The notes under the pieces were generated by a model that did no database searches, was not told the DNA's origin, and worked only from the letters and a program-made list of their open reading frames with translations. Positions 13,350 through 16,163 of a stretch of 40,965 nucleotides of DNA are shown here, one piece after another. A program made the translations under genes and the position numbers. The DNA is from Gemmatimonadota bacterium (GTDB lineage: Bacteria > Gemmatimonadota > Gemmatimonadetes > Gemmatimonadales > GWC2-71-9): the NCBI GenBank assembly GCA_003221045.1, contig QHUC01000113.1:1-40965 (forward strand), written 5' to 3'. Numbering within the stretch: the first letter of the stretch is position 1; every line of letters begins with the position of its first letter.

Positions 13350-14573
13350 TCAGCGCCGCGTCTTCAGCCAGTTGATGGGATCGAGCGCGATGCCGCCCTG
13401 ACCGCGGATCTCGAAATGCAGGTGTGACCCCTGTTCGCTCGAGCCCCCGCCCACGTGCCCGAGGACCTGTCCCTTGACTACCCGCTCACCCGGCGTGACG
13501 ACCGCATCGCTCAAGTAGCCGTAGAAGCTGTAGTAGCCGCCCCCGTGATCAATCAGCACCGACGTGAGGTAGGTGCGCATGGGCCCCGCGAGACTCACGG
13601 TGCCGCTCGCGATCGCGCGGACCGGGGTGCCCGTCGGCGCCCCGATCCCGATGCCGTGCCATGGGATGCGGGTGTTGTTCGGGCCGGTGGCCGTGCCGAA
13701 CTGATACAAGATCCGACCCTCGACCGGCCAGTCGAGCTGGCCCAGATCGGCGGTGGTGATGGCGGCGGCGGGCGTCGCCGCCCCGCGGGCCAATGCCTCG
13801 CGACGGGCGCGCTCGAGCGTTGCGATGCGGTCGTTCAGGCTCTTTTCGTCGCGCTCGAGCTCGGACAGGCGTTGCTGCGCCTCGCGCGCGCTGCGCCGCG
13901 TCTCACGCAACGACGCCTGCCGCTCCCGCTCGAGTGCCAGGTAGCGGTCGAGCTCCTGGGTCCGCTCGTTCTTGCGGCGGCCGAGCGCGTCGCGGGCGTC
14001 CACGAGCGTCTGCCGCTCCCGCGCGATGCGCCGCTGCAATTTCGACATGTCGTTCGCCAGCAGGCGGTCCTGCCGGCTCACGAGGTAGAGGTACTTGTAG
14101 CGCGACAGCAGGTCGCCAAAGCTCTCGGCGGCGAGCAGTACCTGATAGACGTACAGCGCCCCGCGCTTGTAGATGTCGACGAGGCGACGCTCGAGCACGG
14201 CGCGCTTCTCCGCGAGCGCGTTCTGGGCGAGCAGCAGGTCCACGGTGGTCTTGTCAAGCTGATCGGAGAGGCCGTTGATCTGCCGGTCGAGCTCGTTCAC
14301 GATGCGGTTGGTGGTTTCCTTCTGTCGCTCGATGTTCGCAAGCTCGTCGGAGAGGGAATGGACCTGGGTGCGGAGACGCTCGAGCTCCTGCTCCACGTCG
14401 GACCGCTCGCGGCGGATGCTTTCGAGGCGTTGCTGGTTGTCGCGTAGCTGTTGATCAAACGGCGCGGGCTTTTGCGAAGCTAAAGAGATCGGGACGAAAA
14501 CCGTAAACCAAGAAACGTAGAAACGAAACGTGGAGGAACGACGTGGAGGAAAGACGTATGGTTTTCCCTTCAC
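13350..14573 (-). CDS. Murein hydrolase activator / M23 peptidase family protein (EnvC-like)
   Basis: A long coiled coil (QQRLESIRRERSDVEQELERLRTQV...) is followed by a C-terminal LytM/M23 domain (GIGIGAPTGTPVRAIASG...IDHGGGYYSFYGYL...GSHLHFEIR). I prefer the start GTG 14573, which has GGAGAAAG 6 nt upstream and a signal-like N-terminus ...FYVSWFTVFVPISLASQ. The track start GTG 14624 would overlap ftsX. Confidence 0.8.
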   Translation of the reverse strand: MKGKPYVFPPRRSSTFRFYVSWFTVFVPISLASQKPAPFDQQLRDNQQRLESIRRERSDVEQELERLRTQVHSLSDELANIERQKETTNRIVNELDRQINGLSDQLDKTTVDLLLAQNALAEKRAVLERRLVDIYKRGALYVYQVLLAAESFGDLLSRYKYLYLVSRQDRLLANDMSKLQRRIARERQTLVDARDALGRRKNERTQELDRYLALERERQASLRETRRSAREAQQRLSELERDEKSLNDRIATLERARREALARGAATPAAAITTADLGQLDWPVEGRILYQFGTATGPNNTRIPWHGIGIGAPTGTPVRAIASGTVSLAGPMRTYLTSVLIDHGGGYYSFYGYLSDAVVTPGERVVKGQVLGHVGGGSSEQGSHLHFEIRGQGGIALDPINWLKTRR

Positions 14574-14626
14574 GTTCTTTCTCCACGCCGTTTCTCTACG
14601 TCTATTCTCCACGTCGTTATACACGT
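14502..14626. repeat. AT-rich array of about nine 13-bp-phased ACGT-anchored units forming a long imperfect palindrome
   Basis: ACGT occurs at 14515, 14528, 14541 and 14554, then at 14572, 14585 (ACGC), 14598, 14611 and 14623. Left-arm units are ACGTGGAGGAA(C/A)G. Right-arm units are their complements (TTCTCCACGT). The dyad centre is near 14564. The 13-bp period is not a multiple of 3. Confidence 0.8.
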
Positions 14627-15474
14627 CTTAAGTGTCTGCCAACGGATGCCGCACTGCCAAAGAGTCCAATGAGCGTTCCGAAACCGACGATGGCGACCGC
14701 CTGCTCTTTCGAGAAGAAAGCCGCCTGAATCAGCCAACGATTGATCAGGGTGTAAGCACCGTACGAGAGTCCGATCGCGACCAATCCGCCGAGCATGCCC
14801 TTGATCGCCCCCTGCAGCAGGAACGGCCGCCTGATAAAGCCGTTCGTGGCGCCGACCAGTCGCATGATCGCGATCTCGCGGCTGCGCTGCAGCACCGCCA
14901 TCCGGATGGTCGTGCCGATGATGATGATCGCCACGACCGCGAACGCAGCCCCGACCACGAGCCCCACCGCTGCGGCGATCCCGCGCAACCGGTCGAGCTT
15001 TTCCACCCAATCCCGTCCGAACCGCACGTCGTCCACGAAACCGAACCCGCGCAGGCGGTCGGCGACCTCGTTCACGTGGTCGACGTCGCGGAACCGCGGC
15101 TTGAGCTTGACCTCGATCGAGGCGGGAAGGGGATTGCGCTCCAGCTCCTGCAGCACGTCCCGGAACTCGACCAGCTCGGCGTGCGCGCGCGCCAGGGCCG
15201 AGTCCTCGCTGACGTACGCGGCCGACTGGACCTCGGGGAATGCCTCGATGTCCTTTTCGGCGAGTGTGATGGACTCGATCGGCGTCCCCGGCAGGAGGTA
15301 GGCGACGATTTCGACGCGCTCGGCGACGTCTTGCAGCGCGTGCTGCAGGTTCACCGCCACGAGGCCGAACAGTCCCACCACGAAGAGCGAGAACGCGATG
15401 GTCGTTACGGACAGCGCCGAGAGGAGCGGCGCCCGGCGAAACGCGATCAAGGATTCGCGGACCGTCAGGTTCAC
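14617..15474 (-). CDS. ftsX: Cell division ABC transporter permease FtsX
   Basis: 285 aa. Topology is N-terminal TM, periplasmic domain, then three C-terminal TMs. It directly follows ftsE with a GTGA overlap. Confidence 0.9.
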   Translation of the reverse strand: MNLTVRESLIAFRRAPLLSALSVTTIAFSLFVVGLFGLVAVNLQHALQDVAERVEIVAYLLPGTPIESITLAEKDIEAFPEVQSAAYVSEDSALARAHAELVEFRDVLQELERNPLPASIEVKLKPRFRDVDHVNEVADRLRGFGFVDDVRFGRDWVEKLDRLRGIAAAVGLVVGAAFAVVAIIIIGTTIRMAVLQRSREIAIMRLVGATNGFIRRPFLLQGAIKGMLGGLVAIGLSYGAYTLINRWLIQAAFFSKEQAVAIVGFGTLIGLFGSAASVGRHLRRV

Positions 15475-16163
15475 GGCGACGCCGCCTCACGGGGCTCATC
15501 CACGGCGGAGTCGTACACCAGCGCGCCCTCCTGCAGCTCGATCACGCGGTAGGGTGCCTGGCGCACCAGGTCGAGATCGTGCGTGGCCATCACGACGGCG
15601 GTGCCGCTCGCGTTGATGTCGCGCAGGAGCTGGAAGACGCCGCGCGTCGCGCGCTCGTCCAGATTGCCGGTGGGCTCGTCGGCGAGCAGCACGGTGGGCT
15701 CGTTCACCAGCGCGCGCGCGATCGCGACCCGCTGTTGCTCACCGCCCGAGAGCTCGCGGGGGTAGGCCTGTGCCTTGGCGGCGAGCCCCACCTGCGTGAG
15801 CACCCGCATGACGCGCGCCGGGATCGACGACCGTCGCGCGCCGGTGACCTCGAGCGCGAAGGCGACGTTCTCGTCGGCGGTCCGATCCTCGAGCAGCCGG
15901 AAATCCTGGAACACGATGCCGAGGCGGCGGCGCAGCATCGGGACGTCGCGCGGGCGCAGCTCGGCGGCGTTGAAGCCCGAGACGCGCACTTCGCCGCTCG
16001 TCACCGGCTCTTCGGCGTAGATCAGCTTGAGGACGGTGGATTTGCCGGCACCGGAATGGCCGGTGAGGAACACGAACTCGCCCTTCGCGATGTGGAACGA
16101 CACGTCCTTCAGGGCGAGCCCCCCCTTGGGGAAGGCCTTGAAGACATTCGTGAACTTGATCAC
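15471..16163 (-). CDS. ftsE: Cell division ATP-binding protein FtsE
   Basis: [11 protein letters not shown], Walker [10 protein letters not shown], signature [15 protein letters not shown], Walker [12 protein letters not shown]. Confidence 0.95.

Follow-up and report, generated by a model that had tools for sequence, protein, structure and literature searches.

What is the array of 13-bp units that separates ftsX from envC in this Gemmatimonadota bacterium, and how would ribosomes pass from one gene to the other across it? An earlier note had offered three possible roles for the array, namely a translational-control hairpin that uncouples EnvC from FtsEX, a multi-site operator for an ACGT-recognising regulator, and a small repeat element. 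The last of these was the correct identity, and members of the same family were found at other loci. In our view, the array probably represents a clade-wide hairpin repeat in a gene-less copy that the envC reading frame has incorporated as an export signal.

Results

A stable hairpin of inverted 13-nt units lies between ftsX and envC

In the window, i.e., the whole stretch of DNA that was analysed (40,965 nt, hereafter 41 kb), the GC content per 100 nt fell below 0.50 only at 14429-14662, with a minimum of 0.45, which agreed with the aberrant composition described before. ACGT cores had been claimed on the plus strand at eight positions with 13-bp phasing; seven of them were found as described (14515/28/41/54 and 14572/98/611), whereas the core at 14585 reads ACGC. 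The pattern ACGT-N9-ACGT-N9-ACGT had 2 matches versus 0.00 in shuffles, and ACGTGGAGRAA with at most one mismatch had 9 matches versus 0.87 expected, five of the nine being within the array. The imperfect palindrome is also real: it is built from two inverted arms of 13-nt RCGT units (14515-14557 and 14572-14614), each 43 nt long and with a period of 13 by TRF, which are 74% complementary and spaced by 14 nt. The repeat units are degenerate (67-94% alike), and the purine fraction of the hairpin is 0.63 in its first half and 0.31 in its second half.

Folding of the minus-strand RNA 14630..14495, a check that had been proposed for the predicted structure, yielded -57.7 kcal/mol and 54 pairs with z = -5.5, and 0 of 200 shuffles folded as well; the plus strand of the array folded to -50.1 kcal/mol (z = -5.1). 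The two CCTCC motifs and the GGAG-N7-GTG at 14573 reported earlier are present, and in the predicted fold the hairpin does bury this internal GGAG/GTG by pairing it with the CCUCC-bearing 3′ arm. Scans of the array region detected no promoter, promoter-like site or terminator. No Rfam 15 family matched at or above its gathering score, and generic miRNA-precursor hairpins reached 18-25 bits against cut-offs of 60-107.

The features of the junction are listed in Table 1. The first full unit of the 5′ arm begins 3 nt past the ftsX stop, and every GGAG-type unit in this arm reads GGAG + 7 nt + GTG. In a 13-mer of this type, GGAG + 7 nt + GUG is available in all three frames. The 3′ arm encodes the EnvC leader residues VFPPRRSSTFRFYV, and the T-rich units that follow it, for which the 5′ arm offers no clean pairing partners, encode the hydrophobic core and a cleavage-type motif, SWFTVFVPISLA/SQ. 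The mature EnvC part, QKPAPFDQQL, aligns with relatives, and the envC-like product matched Pfam Peptidase_M23 (E 9e-25) and also CC_PcsB.

Table 1. Sequence features at the ftsX/envC junction, in positions of the window
Feature	Position	Strand	Basis or remark
ftsX	14617..15474	-	ORF, translation; Pfam FtsX_ECD and FtsX; stop TAA 14619-14617
Final ftsX codons AGA CGT GTA TAA		-	Array-unit-like (GACGTGTATAACG)
mRNA 5′ arm, purine-rich	14572..14614	-	Inverted and direct repeats, TRF period 13
13-nt units of the 5′ arm		-	ACGTGGAGAATAG / ACGTAGAGAAACGG / CGTGGAGAAAGA / ACGTG...
Apical loop region GAAGGGAAAACCAT	14558..14571	-	MFE structure, sequence comparison
mRNA 3′ arm, pyrimidine-rich	14515..14557	-	Repeats, fold, similarity to C41 right arm
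Units of the 3′ arm		-	ACGTCTTTCCTCC / ACGTCGTTCCTCC / ACGTTTCGTTTCT
Two to three extra degenerate T-rich units (ACGTTTCTTGGTTT / ACGGTTTTCGTCCCG ...)	14478..14514	-	Sequence, translation
Two in-frame GTG start candidates at the stem foot	14610..14624	-	Sequence, relatives
Internal GGAG (14584-14581) + 7 nt + GTG (14573-14571)	14571..14584	-	Buried in the inner stem
envC-like gene, longest open frame	13350..14624	-	Coiled coil and M23 peptidase domain

The same repeat family occurs elsewhere in the genome and encloses PF05635 genes

By the exact pattern of three ACGT cores the array appeared unique in the genome, but this was rejected, as the search for other 13-bp arrays, made with TRF and by inspection, found degenerate RCGT arrays at four further loci (C41, C170, C121 and C58). 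The C58 copy is of the CACG type, and the C170 copy begins within the last codons and the TGA of its upstream gene. Furthermore, a genome palindrome scan identified at least 45 purine-first palindromes with arms of tandem 7-16-nt units, which belong to several unit families; nearly all palindromes genome-wide are purine-first, and they sit at unrelated gene junctions of all kinds, convergent and divergent ones included.

At C41, the 13-mer arms enclose a gene of PF05635, annotated as "23S rRNA intervening-sequence protein" (E 7e-26). In register, the envC 5′ arm is identical to the C41 left arm at 38 of 48 positions; over its initial 30 nt, the envC 3′ arm has about 26/30 identity to C41, and the apical loop is akin to the inner edges of that element (CGTGAAAAGGATGCCA ... 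TTACGTCT). The variant units also occur in the same order in the envC hairpin and in the C41 arms, and therefore the envC hairpin stands to the C41 element as an ORF-less derivative stands to a gene-bearing copy. A tblastn search detected seven PF05635 genes in this genome, six of which are flanked on both sides by inverted tandem arrays, as are, judged by eye, about 26 of 30 in relatives.

Comparing unit types by windowed counts and by local alignments limited to gene flanks, we found nine genomes, representing approximately 3-4 independent transitions, in which the envC junction has the same unit type as the arms around a PF05635 gene at another locus of that genome. The match is of the GGAG type in three of them (G000/C41, G002/L145 and G041/L219), of the GTGAAAAAGA type in G042/L221 (87/107 identical), and of the CACG type, with the PF05635 gene "locus A", in G001, G004, G006, G009 and G014. 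In G018 and G003, which are without such an armed gene, the envC hairpin is degenerate or replaced. The GGGAGCG family is a misfit; gene-less copies of it occur in G003 and G000, and an armed gene was not found. K-mer sharing across whole 3-kb loci was too noisy and was dropped for this comparison. Gene conversion among dispersed repeats, without any role of the PF05635 protein, could account for the tracking.

Hairpin turnover at the junction across the order

Among 87 distinct Gemmatimonadales ftsX/envC junctions, 64 are long and 49 carry hairpins with z <= -3, and 21 are short, with no hairpin and a plain signal peptide. All of the junction hairpins (49/49) have the purine-first polarity. 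Their arrays start within a few nt of the ftsX stop and consist of units of 6-8, 13 or 14-15 nt, of which the 7-, 8- and 15-nt units are without ACGT. On the FtsX tree, 12 unit labels required 37 changes (minimum 11, shuffled mean 55), and the hairpin-less junctions are scattered over it with 17 changes, so that the hairpin at this junction has been gained, lost and swapped. Junction occupancy is about 75%, far above the genome-wide rate; such a high value would also be explained by a selected function.

In comparisons of the junction across relatives, which had been suggested for the detection of covariation, the arms stay complementary while the units change. No sense-strand wobble bias was observed. 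The difference of sense minus antisense fold energy averaged -1.0 +/- 6.7 kcal/mol, with the sense fold being stabler in 30 of the 49 hairpins. Because sense and antisense folds are equally good, these 49 hairpins carry no strand-specific sign of selection on RNA structure. Selection for T-rich hydrophobic codons confounds this comparison of sense and antisense folds.

EnvC is predicted to start near the ftsX stop and to be read through the hairpin

As stated earlier, the envC frame stays open through the array; it does so from GTG 14624 across both arms. GTG 14624-14622 overlaps the final ftsX codons, and GTG 14612-14610, about 7-8 nt past the ftsX stop, is conserved in L004, L031 and L056. 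The start that had been preferred, GTG 14573, did not hold up: its counterpart in the closest relative (G018, L031) is GTT, and the sole in-frame start of L031 is the +8 GTG equivalent to 14612. Moreover, the Shine-Dalgarno (SD) argument for GTG 14573 is weak because SD-like motifs stand upstream of merely 28% of the clear starts in this genome.

An in-frame start no more than 8 nt from the ftsX stop was found in 22 of 22 hairpins with 6-8-nt units. Most relatives keep an in-frame start codon at the ftsX stop or within 8 nt of it and their frame crosses the hairpin, which speaks against the suggested uncoupling of EnvC from FtsEX; given these near-stop in-frame starts and the read-through, the structure should enforce coupling, not break it. 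Read-through of the 5′ arm is not universal, however, because the first in-frame start ranges from -5 to +52 in the 13-mer genus, and in L012 a start is possible in the loop only.

In 22 CACG-type 3′ arms, the consensus GTGACG occurs at 22 of 81 positions where its TGA is out of frame, versus 0 of 30 where it is in frame; GCGACG occupies 16 of 30 in-frame positions versus 6 of 81 elsewhere. At the level of the reading frame, the analysis demonstrated that the 3′ arm of the hairpin is translated as the EnvC leader. The ftsX stop codon and GTGs 14624 and 14612 are all located at the stem foot, a geometry that fits structure-enforced coupling. Among metatranscriptome contigs, none spanned this locus. 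As predicted from this sequence geometry, EnvC translation is likely to depend on ribosomes that complete ftsX.

Discussion

The envC array is an inverted tandem-repeat (IVS-type) hairpin element in its gene-less form. It consists of inverted tandem arrays that are purine-first, it sits at the ftsX stop, it belongs to a family that includes a PF05635 copy and is related in register to that copy, and it turns over among relatives. The class to which it belongs may be described as a palindrome with tandem-unit arms, whose purine-rich array comes first on either strand and which is seated on a stop codon. In its present place, the 5′ arm would supply the basic N-terminal stretch of EnvC, and the signal peptide takes its RR motif and hydrophobic core from the 3′ arm together with the degenerate T-rich units. 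In the ftsEX-envC transcript, free 30S subunits would be kept from binding by the stem of about -58 kcal/mol, and only ribosomes terminating at the ftsX UAA, at the stem foot, would then make EnvC. These ribosomes may reinitiate at one of the two GUGs (14612 or 14624) and open the stem during elongation; an ancestral ATGA-type coupling would thereby be preserved. The element may now persist at the junction by "lock-in," because it has become the source of the export signal, and its units may be overwritten from the resident PF05635-bearing copy.

In MS2 coat/replicase and in ATGA overlaps, the downstream start is locked in structure and served by upstream-cistron ribosomes only. By analogy, the envC element on the mRNA most likely works like such structure-dependent translational coupling. 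It differs in that a dispersed repeat provides the structure, which reaches about 100 nt into the coding sequence of the downstream gene; at the junction of many relatives it is dispensable.

The gene-bearing copy has a close counterpart in the 23S rRNA intervening sequences (IVSs) of Coxiella burnetii and Leptospira. There, terminal inverted repeats flank a PF05635/S23p four-helix-bundle gene and pair into a long stem, and strains differ in how many tandem GACAGAT heptamers the stem region contains; the ORF-bearing IVS is considered a selfish element that may once have been mobile (Warrier et al. 2016, PMC4990558). The C41 element shares this layout, using the 13-mer units of the envC hairpin. 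In contrast, the envC element is ORF-less, translated and made of 13-nt units, and the RNA that contains it is not rRNA but the mRNA of the ftsEX-envC operon, where it is placed between protein genes and also inside them. A strict-sense 23S rRNA intervening sequence was rejected as its identity, given its location in this operon. Furthermore, IVSs are excised by RNase III, whereas RNase III was undetected in this clade: none of 15 Gemmatimonadales genomes had a match to PF14622 or TIGR02191, and a search of this genome in all six frames did not find the signature motif of RNase III.

Tandem units of 7 nt that are abundant genome-wide are known from the G-rich heptamer repeats of Xanthomonas (GGGAATC) and Nostoc, which are transcribed, may overlap stop codons and have the same "purine-first on both strands" polarity; the published description is of arrays that occur singly, not in inverted pairs, and have the potential to form G-quadruplexes, and it connects them neither to PF05635 nor to signal peptides (Rehm et al. 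2015, PMC4692102). Unlike these heptamers, the GGAG-type 13-mers at envC are without G-tracts. In Geobacter metallireducens, many copies of opposite-strand site pairs, each with 3-5 tandem units of 7-9 nt and at variable distance, were read as binding sites of a global regulator, coding use and a cargo gene being outside that analysis (Aklujkar et al. 2009, PMC2700814). With the family at envC, short-unit hairpins extend to 13-nt units, beyond 7-8. Literature searches on palindromic repeats of Gemmatimonadetes, and on inverted repeats in connection with PF05635, retrieved nothing specific. The Rickettsia palindromic elements described by Ogata and colleagues in 2000 are reportedly inserted in frame into protein genes and translated without destroying the protein. 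They are an unrelated sequence family without tandem-unit arms and are inserted in protein interiors, whereas the envC element lies at a stop/start junction; the Rickettsia elements are not known to have a gene-bearing partner.

In this genome, a gene-bearing "intervening-sequence" element and a copy without a gene can be aligned in register, and the unit types of both change together across species, which makes the role of PF05635/S23p and of the IVS stem testable; the question would be whether the PF05635 protein acts on its own units. Gene-less hairpins and PF05635 copies might even form one system, an idea that we hold only tentatively and consider rather doubtful. In each genome, a resident but unlinked PF05635 element would then set and renew the unit "dialect" of a gene-less hairpin, here that of the EnvC leader, with the four-helix-bundle pentamer perhaps being a unit-specific factor, the hairpins would settle at stop/start sites and could be exapted as signal peptides, and the apparent lack of RNase III would be permissive. 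If confirmed, the absence of RNase III would explain the tolerance of long stems in the mRNAs of these bacteria. For annotation, the leaders of exported proteins in this phylum can consist of repeat DNA, and SD rules alone are insufficient for choosing such start codons. For cell division, EnvC synthesis is predicted to be mechanically tied to FtsX translation in these bacteria.

Four other explanations were weighed against that of an absorbed gene-less repeat. A dedicated, selected envC riboregulator, which would set the FtsX:EnvC ratio or make EnvC conditional with its repeat make-up being incidental, would accord with the very stable stem that holds GGAG/GTG 14573 and both near-stop GTGs, and with an occupancy across the order that is high relative to the tens of hairpins in a 2.8-Mb genome. 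The arm complementarity that is kept despite changing units agrees with it too, but complementary arms are expected of any palindromic DNA element. The same architecture at dozens of unrelated junctions, convergent and divergent ones among them, and its turnover in relatives, where 21 of the 87 junctions do without a hairpin, argue against a device dedicated to envC; so do a unit type that follows the PF05635 element elsewhere and not envC, and the lack of a sense-strand wobble bias and of an Rfam family. We regard this riboregulator as unlikely. Far less credible still is the operator reading, by which a dimeric ACGT regulator bound to eight 13-bp-phased cores would control envC or ftsEX. ACGT is self-complementary, and conservation of the units across loci and the two unit types is highest in the RCGT cores; however, relatives carry ACGT-less units of 7, 8 and 15 nt at the same site, the same 13-mers occur at functionally unrelated loci, and the array lies inside an operon and a reading frame, with no promoter-like site in the scanned region. 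If the units are read by any protein, a transcription factor would be a poorer candidate than the PF05635 protein encoded in the cognate element.

In Neisseria opa, CTCTT repeats in the signal-peptide region give phase variation, and a contingency locus in which slippage of units in the leader switches EnvC on and off might be imagined here as well, as units of 7, 8 and 13 nt are not multiples of 3, the arrays are located in the 5′ coding region, and unit number differs between species. Slippage is disfavoured because the units are degenerate. In addition, a 494-nt stretch was recovered in contigs of four independent soil metagenomes with 0-2 substitutions and no indel, although contigs can hide rare variants, the leaders of L001 and L004 are equal in length, and all 87 assembled junctions (87/87) are in frame; phase variation at this locus is thus extremely improbable. 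That the hairpin is just a MITE or REPIN, mobilised by a transposase or a RAYT and unconnected to PF05635, is very unlikely in our judgement. The element does have inverted arms, many copies per genome and gene-end positions, and Y1_Tnp (PF01797) has four matches in the genome, but the copy with the envC units carries PF05635 and not a known transposase. An unsystematic look at the locus noticed no target-site duplication around the envC hairpin, and neither movement, target duplication nor an enzyme was seen for the element. Moreover, the RAYT/REPIN reading is rejected because the Y1_Tnp genes are flanked by other repeats, namely classical GC-rich REP-type palindromes and not tandem-unit or 13-mer arrays. 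One Y1_Tnp fragment is itself cargo within a AGACGCAC-type element.

A hairpin of 13-nt units at the ftsX/envC junction

G000, the genome to which the window belongs as contig C185, is a soil MAG of 2.8 Mb (GC 68%, completeness 85%), and every relative recovered with FtsX was a Gemmatimonadales MAG. The two arms of the envC hairpin are 74% complementary. The 13-bp ACGT phasing described in an earlier note was recovered in both arms, but one of its eight ACGT cores is in fact ACGC. The phased pattern occurred in none of the shuffles and TRF returned a period of 13, and the stretch is the compositional outlier it was taken for, with GC falling below 50% nowhere else in the window. The proposed stable mRNA-sense fold was also confirmed (54 pairs, -57.7 kcal/mol, z = -5.5); the opposite strand folds at -50.1 kcal/mol (z = -5.1). 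In this fold, the internal GTG 14573 is buried deep in the stem, at whose foot the ftsX stop and both near-stop GTGs are located. The array was accounted for neither by an Rfam family nor by any promoter-like or terminator-like site in the hairpin region.

Features of the ftsX/envC locus, related arrays in G000, and junctions of relatives in the same FtsX clade
Feature	Position	Strand	Description
ftsE	16163..15471	minus	
ftsX	15474..14617	minus	stop TAA
EnvC-like gene	longest frame from GTG 14624	minus	coiled coil and M23 domain
envC hairpin, 5′ arm	14572-14614	minus	13-nt RCGT units
envC hairpin, 3′ arm	14515-14557	minus	
C170 copy			array begins within last codons and TGA of upstream gene
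C121 copy			13-mer array between two co-directional genes
C58 copy			CACG variant of 13-mer
Palindrome centres in G000 (examples)	C156:859, C25:14335, C42:852, C143:855, C154:1482, C264:6278, C257:3738, C151:2940		
Palindrome unit families in G000			include TGCGGAR, GGGAGCG, AGACGCAC, GGTTGGTGGA, ATTGCGG, GGGCGGCAnn, GCGACGGA...
G018 junction			GGAG-type 13-mer, degenerate, z -1.8
G003 junction			GGGAGCG 7-mer hairpin in place of 13-mer
G002 junction			GGAG-type 13-mer

Related arrays and PF05635 genes

Scanning the entire assembly for palindromes revealed at least 45 further G000 loci of the same design, namely, 3-5 tandem short units, a spacer and a complementary array, the purine/G-rich array always being first. 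Their units are 7-16 nt long and fall into about eight families, and their gene neighbourhoods are co-directional, convergent or divergent; the array is therefore not an envC-specific feature. TRF and inspection placed the 13-mer RCGT family itself on contigs C41, C170, C121 and C58. On C41, two 13-mer arrays about 400 nt apart enclose a gene of PF05635, the "23S rRNA intervening-sequence protein" family (E 7e-26). The envC 5′ arm matched the C41 left arm in register at 38 of 48 positions, with variant units in the same order (AACGACGT.. / ..CGTAGAGAAA.. / ..GCGTGGAG.. / ..AACGTG), and the start of the 3′ arm shared approximately 26 of 30 identities with the right arm. Judged by this match, the envC hairpin is a gene-less copy of the arms of the C41 element. 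Six of the seven PF05635 genes found in G000 by tblastn lie between inverted tandem arrays, with a different unit in each. The family was present in 23 of 25 genomes (G000 and 24 relatives) at up to 13 copies each, and about 26 of 30 sampled genes were bracketed by inverted tandem arrays, as judged by eye.

Other G000 arrays were observed as well. Inverted CACG-type 13-mer arrays about 500 nt apart (C58:14500-14585 and 15095-15125) flank a small lipoprotein-like gene (MRVWSCCVVLAVVAC...) on the other strand, and loops of the GGGAGCG family are semi-conserved (GGTACCCTCC..GATGCA). At C47:31900-32700, CTAG-bounded arms of the AGACGCAC type surround GC-rich palindromes of REP-like character together with a fragment of Y1_Tnp (PF01797), indicating that the cargo of such arms is not always PF05635 and that nested insertions exist. 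A RAYT/REPIN origin was rejected, as the flanks of the four Y1_Tnp genes differ, being of the classical REP type.

The junction in relatives

We collected 105 ftsX/envC junctions, 87 of them distinct. Sixty-four were long (at least 110 nt from the ftsX stop to the mature N terminus of EnvC), and 49 of those 64 folded with z <= -3, all 49 with the purine-rich half first and with units of 6-8 nt (n = 22), 13 nt (n = 19) or 14-15 nt (n = 8). Another 21 junctions were short and had a plain leader, e.g., MKALLLLLIAAPVVAQ, after an ATGA overlap. In the FtsX tree, G000 grouped with G018, G003 and G002 in a well-supported clade; its sister lineages carry CACG-type 13-mers (GACGTCACGSAGA) at the junction, and L056 is a second, separate GGAG-type case. 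The 12 unit labels required 37 changes on this tree, where at least 11 are needed and shuffled labels averaged 55. The hairpin is thus inherited in part only, with frequent replacement and repeated absence. It is dispensable at this junction.

The L051 (G042) and L074 junctions hold arrays of more than 250 nt (GACGTGAAAAAGAG and GACGGCGTAAAGAGC units), through which frame finding could not trace the envC leader; envC may be intact there or may begin farther downstream. Six leaders (L058, L060, L061, L089, L094 and L097) contain three tandem GTGCGTG heptamers (VRGAWCVV) with no inverted partner, which may be lost-hairpin remnants or solo arrays. L060 (QHSI01000149.1) is labelled Candidatus Rokuibacteriota, yet its FtsX nests within the Gemmatimonadales clade; this contig is probably mis-binned.

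For each genome, the envC hairpin was then compared with the sequences flanking every PF05635 gene of that genome. GGAG-type hairpins (G000, G002 and G041) matched a PF05635 gene at an orthologous locus B, where the neighbour gene starts MLDPIRKLL and the PF05635 proteins of G000 and G002 are 74% identical. CACG-type hairpins (G001, G004, G009, G014 and, weakly, G006) matched another orthologous PF05635 gene, that at locus A, whose arms are CACG type. In G042, the GTGAAAAAGA dialect occurs both at envC and at a PF05635 gene (87/107 identical), cross-genome scores being far lower. Locus A proteins are 79-92% identical among the five relatives with intact CACG-type arms (L164, L172, L178, L190 and L183); the arms are decayed or lost in G000 (C263:7504-7812), G002 (L146) and G003 (L154), where the protein has evolved more rapidly and shares 63-70% identity with the remaining ones. 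G003 and G018, whose envC hairpins are replaced and degenerate, respectively, yielded no 13-mer-armed gene. The link between envC unit type and resident PF05635 element is suggestive and not proven, because the tracking comprises only 3-4 independent transitions and the GGGAGCG family is an exception to it. Gene conversion among dispersed copies is the simplest mechanism for such tracking, and the PF05635 protein may have a role.

Translation of the hairpin and the envC start

In 22 CACG-type junctions, the 3′-arm consensus GTGACG occupied 22 of 81 positions that put its TGA out of frame with envC and 0 of 30 that put it in frame, whereas the one-letter variant GCGACG occupied 16 of 30 in-frame positions and 6 of 81 elsewhere. 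This avoidance and replacement show that the 3′ arm is translated in these junctions and otherwise held near the unit consensus. In the G000 clade, a GTG 7-8 nt past the ftsX stop is conserved (L001, L004 and L031; +5 in L056), and in L031 it is the only possible envC start, GTG 14573, the start preferred earlier, being GTT there. Wherever the units are 6-8 nt long, the hairpin has an in-frame start that coincides with the ftsX stop or lies no more than 8 nt from it, and this is often the sole start before mature EnvC. The Shine-Dalgarno argument for GTG 14573 is weak, because GGAG + 7 nt + GTG is inherent in every GGAG-type unit (5′ arm; C41:2050-2120); SD-like motifs precede 28% of clear starts in G000, against a background of 14%. 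Since 13 is 1 mod 3, three consecutive GGAG-type units give a start in all reading frames, which may make their insertion at cistron junctions harmless. From start 14612, the leader reads VENRRRETAWRKNVKGKPYVFPPRRSSTFRFYVSWFTVFVPISLA followed by SQKP; the 3′ arm encodes VFPPRRSSTFRFYV, and the hydrophobic core extends into degenerate T-rich units (14514-14478) outside the palindrome.

Proposed mode of action and persistence

The stem would keep a free 30S subunit from binding the envC start region. A ribosome ending at the ftsX UAA would already hold the next ~10-12 nt open, and could restart at GUG 14612 or 14624 and melt the stem during elongation. Restart at the foot of the stem would preserve the ATGA-type coupling of hairpin-less relatives, the opposite of the uncoupling of EnvC from FtsEX that had been suggested. 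RNase III cuts comparable stems in 23S IVSs (Warrier et al. 2016, PMC4990558). PF14622 and TIGR02191 detected RNase III in 0 of 15 Gemmatimonadales genomes (G000, G001-G009 and G025-G029; 11 of them at least 90% complete), the same profiles matching 8-9 of 14 control genomes, and the signature xxLE[FYW][LVI]GDx was missing from all six frames of G000. The stem is thus probably not cleaved, and an absence of RNase III could be what allows long stems inside Gemmatimonadales mRNAs.

Why the junction is so often occupied is best explained by lock-in, in that an element supplying the signal peptide is not simply lost. High occupancy might also reflect a selected role of the hairpin in setting EnvC output; we consider this improbable, and a strand-specific wobble signal of selection on the RNA fold was not seen in the junction hairpins. 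An operator for an ACGT-recognising regulator, raised earlier from the ACGT cores, is contradicted by relatives without ACGT at the junction. Phase variation is improbable, as contigs of four independent metagenomes show no indel and the units are degenerate.

Relation to known systems

Among the nearest published relatives are 23S IVSs with an ORF, which have heptamer repeats in their stem (Warrier et al. 2016), the G-rich heptamer repeats adjoining stop codons in Xanthomonas and Nostoc (Rehm et al. 2015, PMC4692102), and the paired tandem-repeat sites of Geobacter metallireducens (Aklujkar et al. 2009, PMC2700814). The passages of these papers on the repeats describe neither a leader-encoding hairpin nor 13-nt units, nor a correspondence between a gene-less and a PF05635 copy, and our literature searches returned nothing on any of these features. 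What the envC case contributes is a 13-mer family with RCGT cores, arms that match those of a gene-bearing copy in register, a unit type tracked across species and the apparent absence of RNase III. The PF05635 gene at L113 and L117 (G015 and G003) has GGGGTCC-type arms and directly adjoins a tRNA gene.
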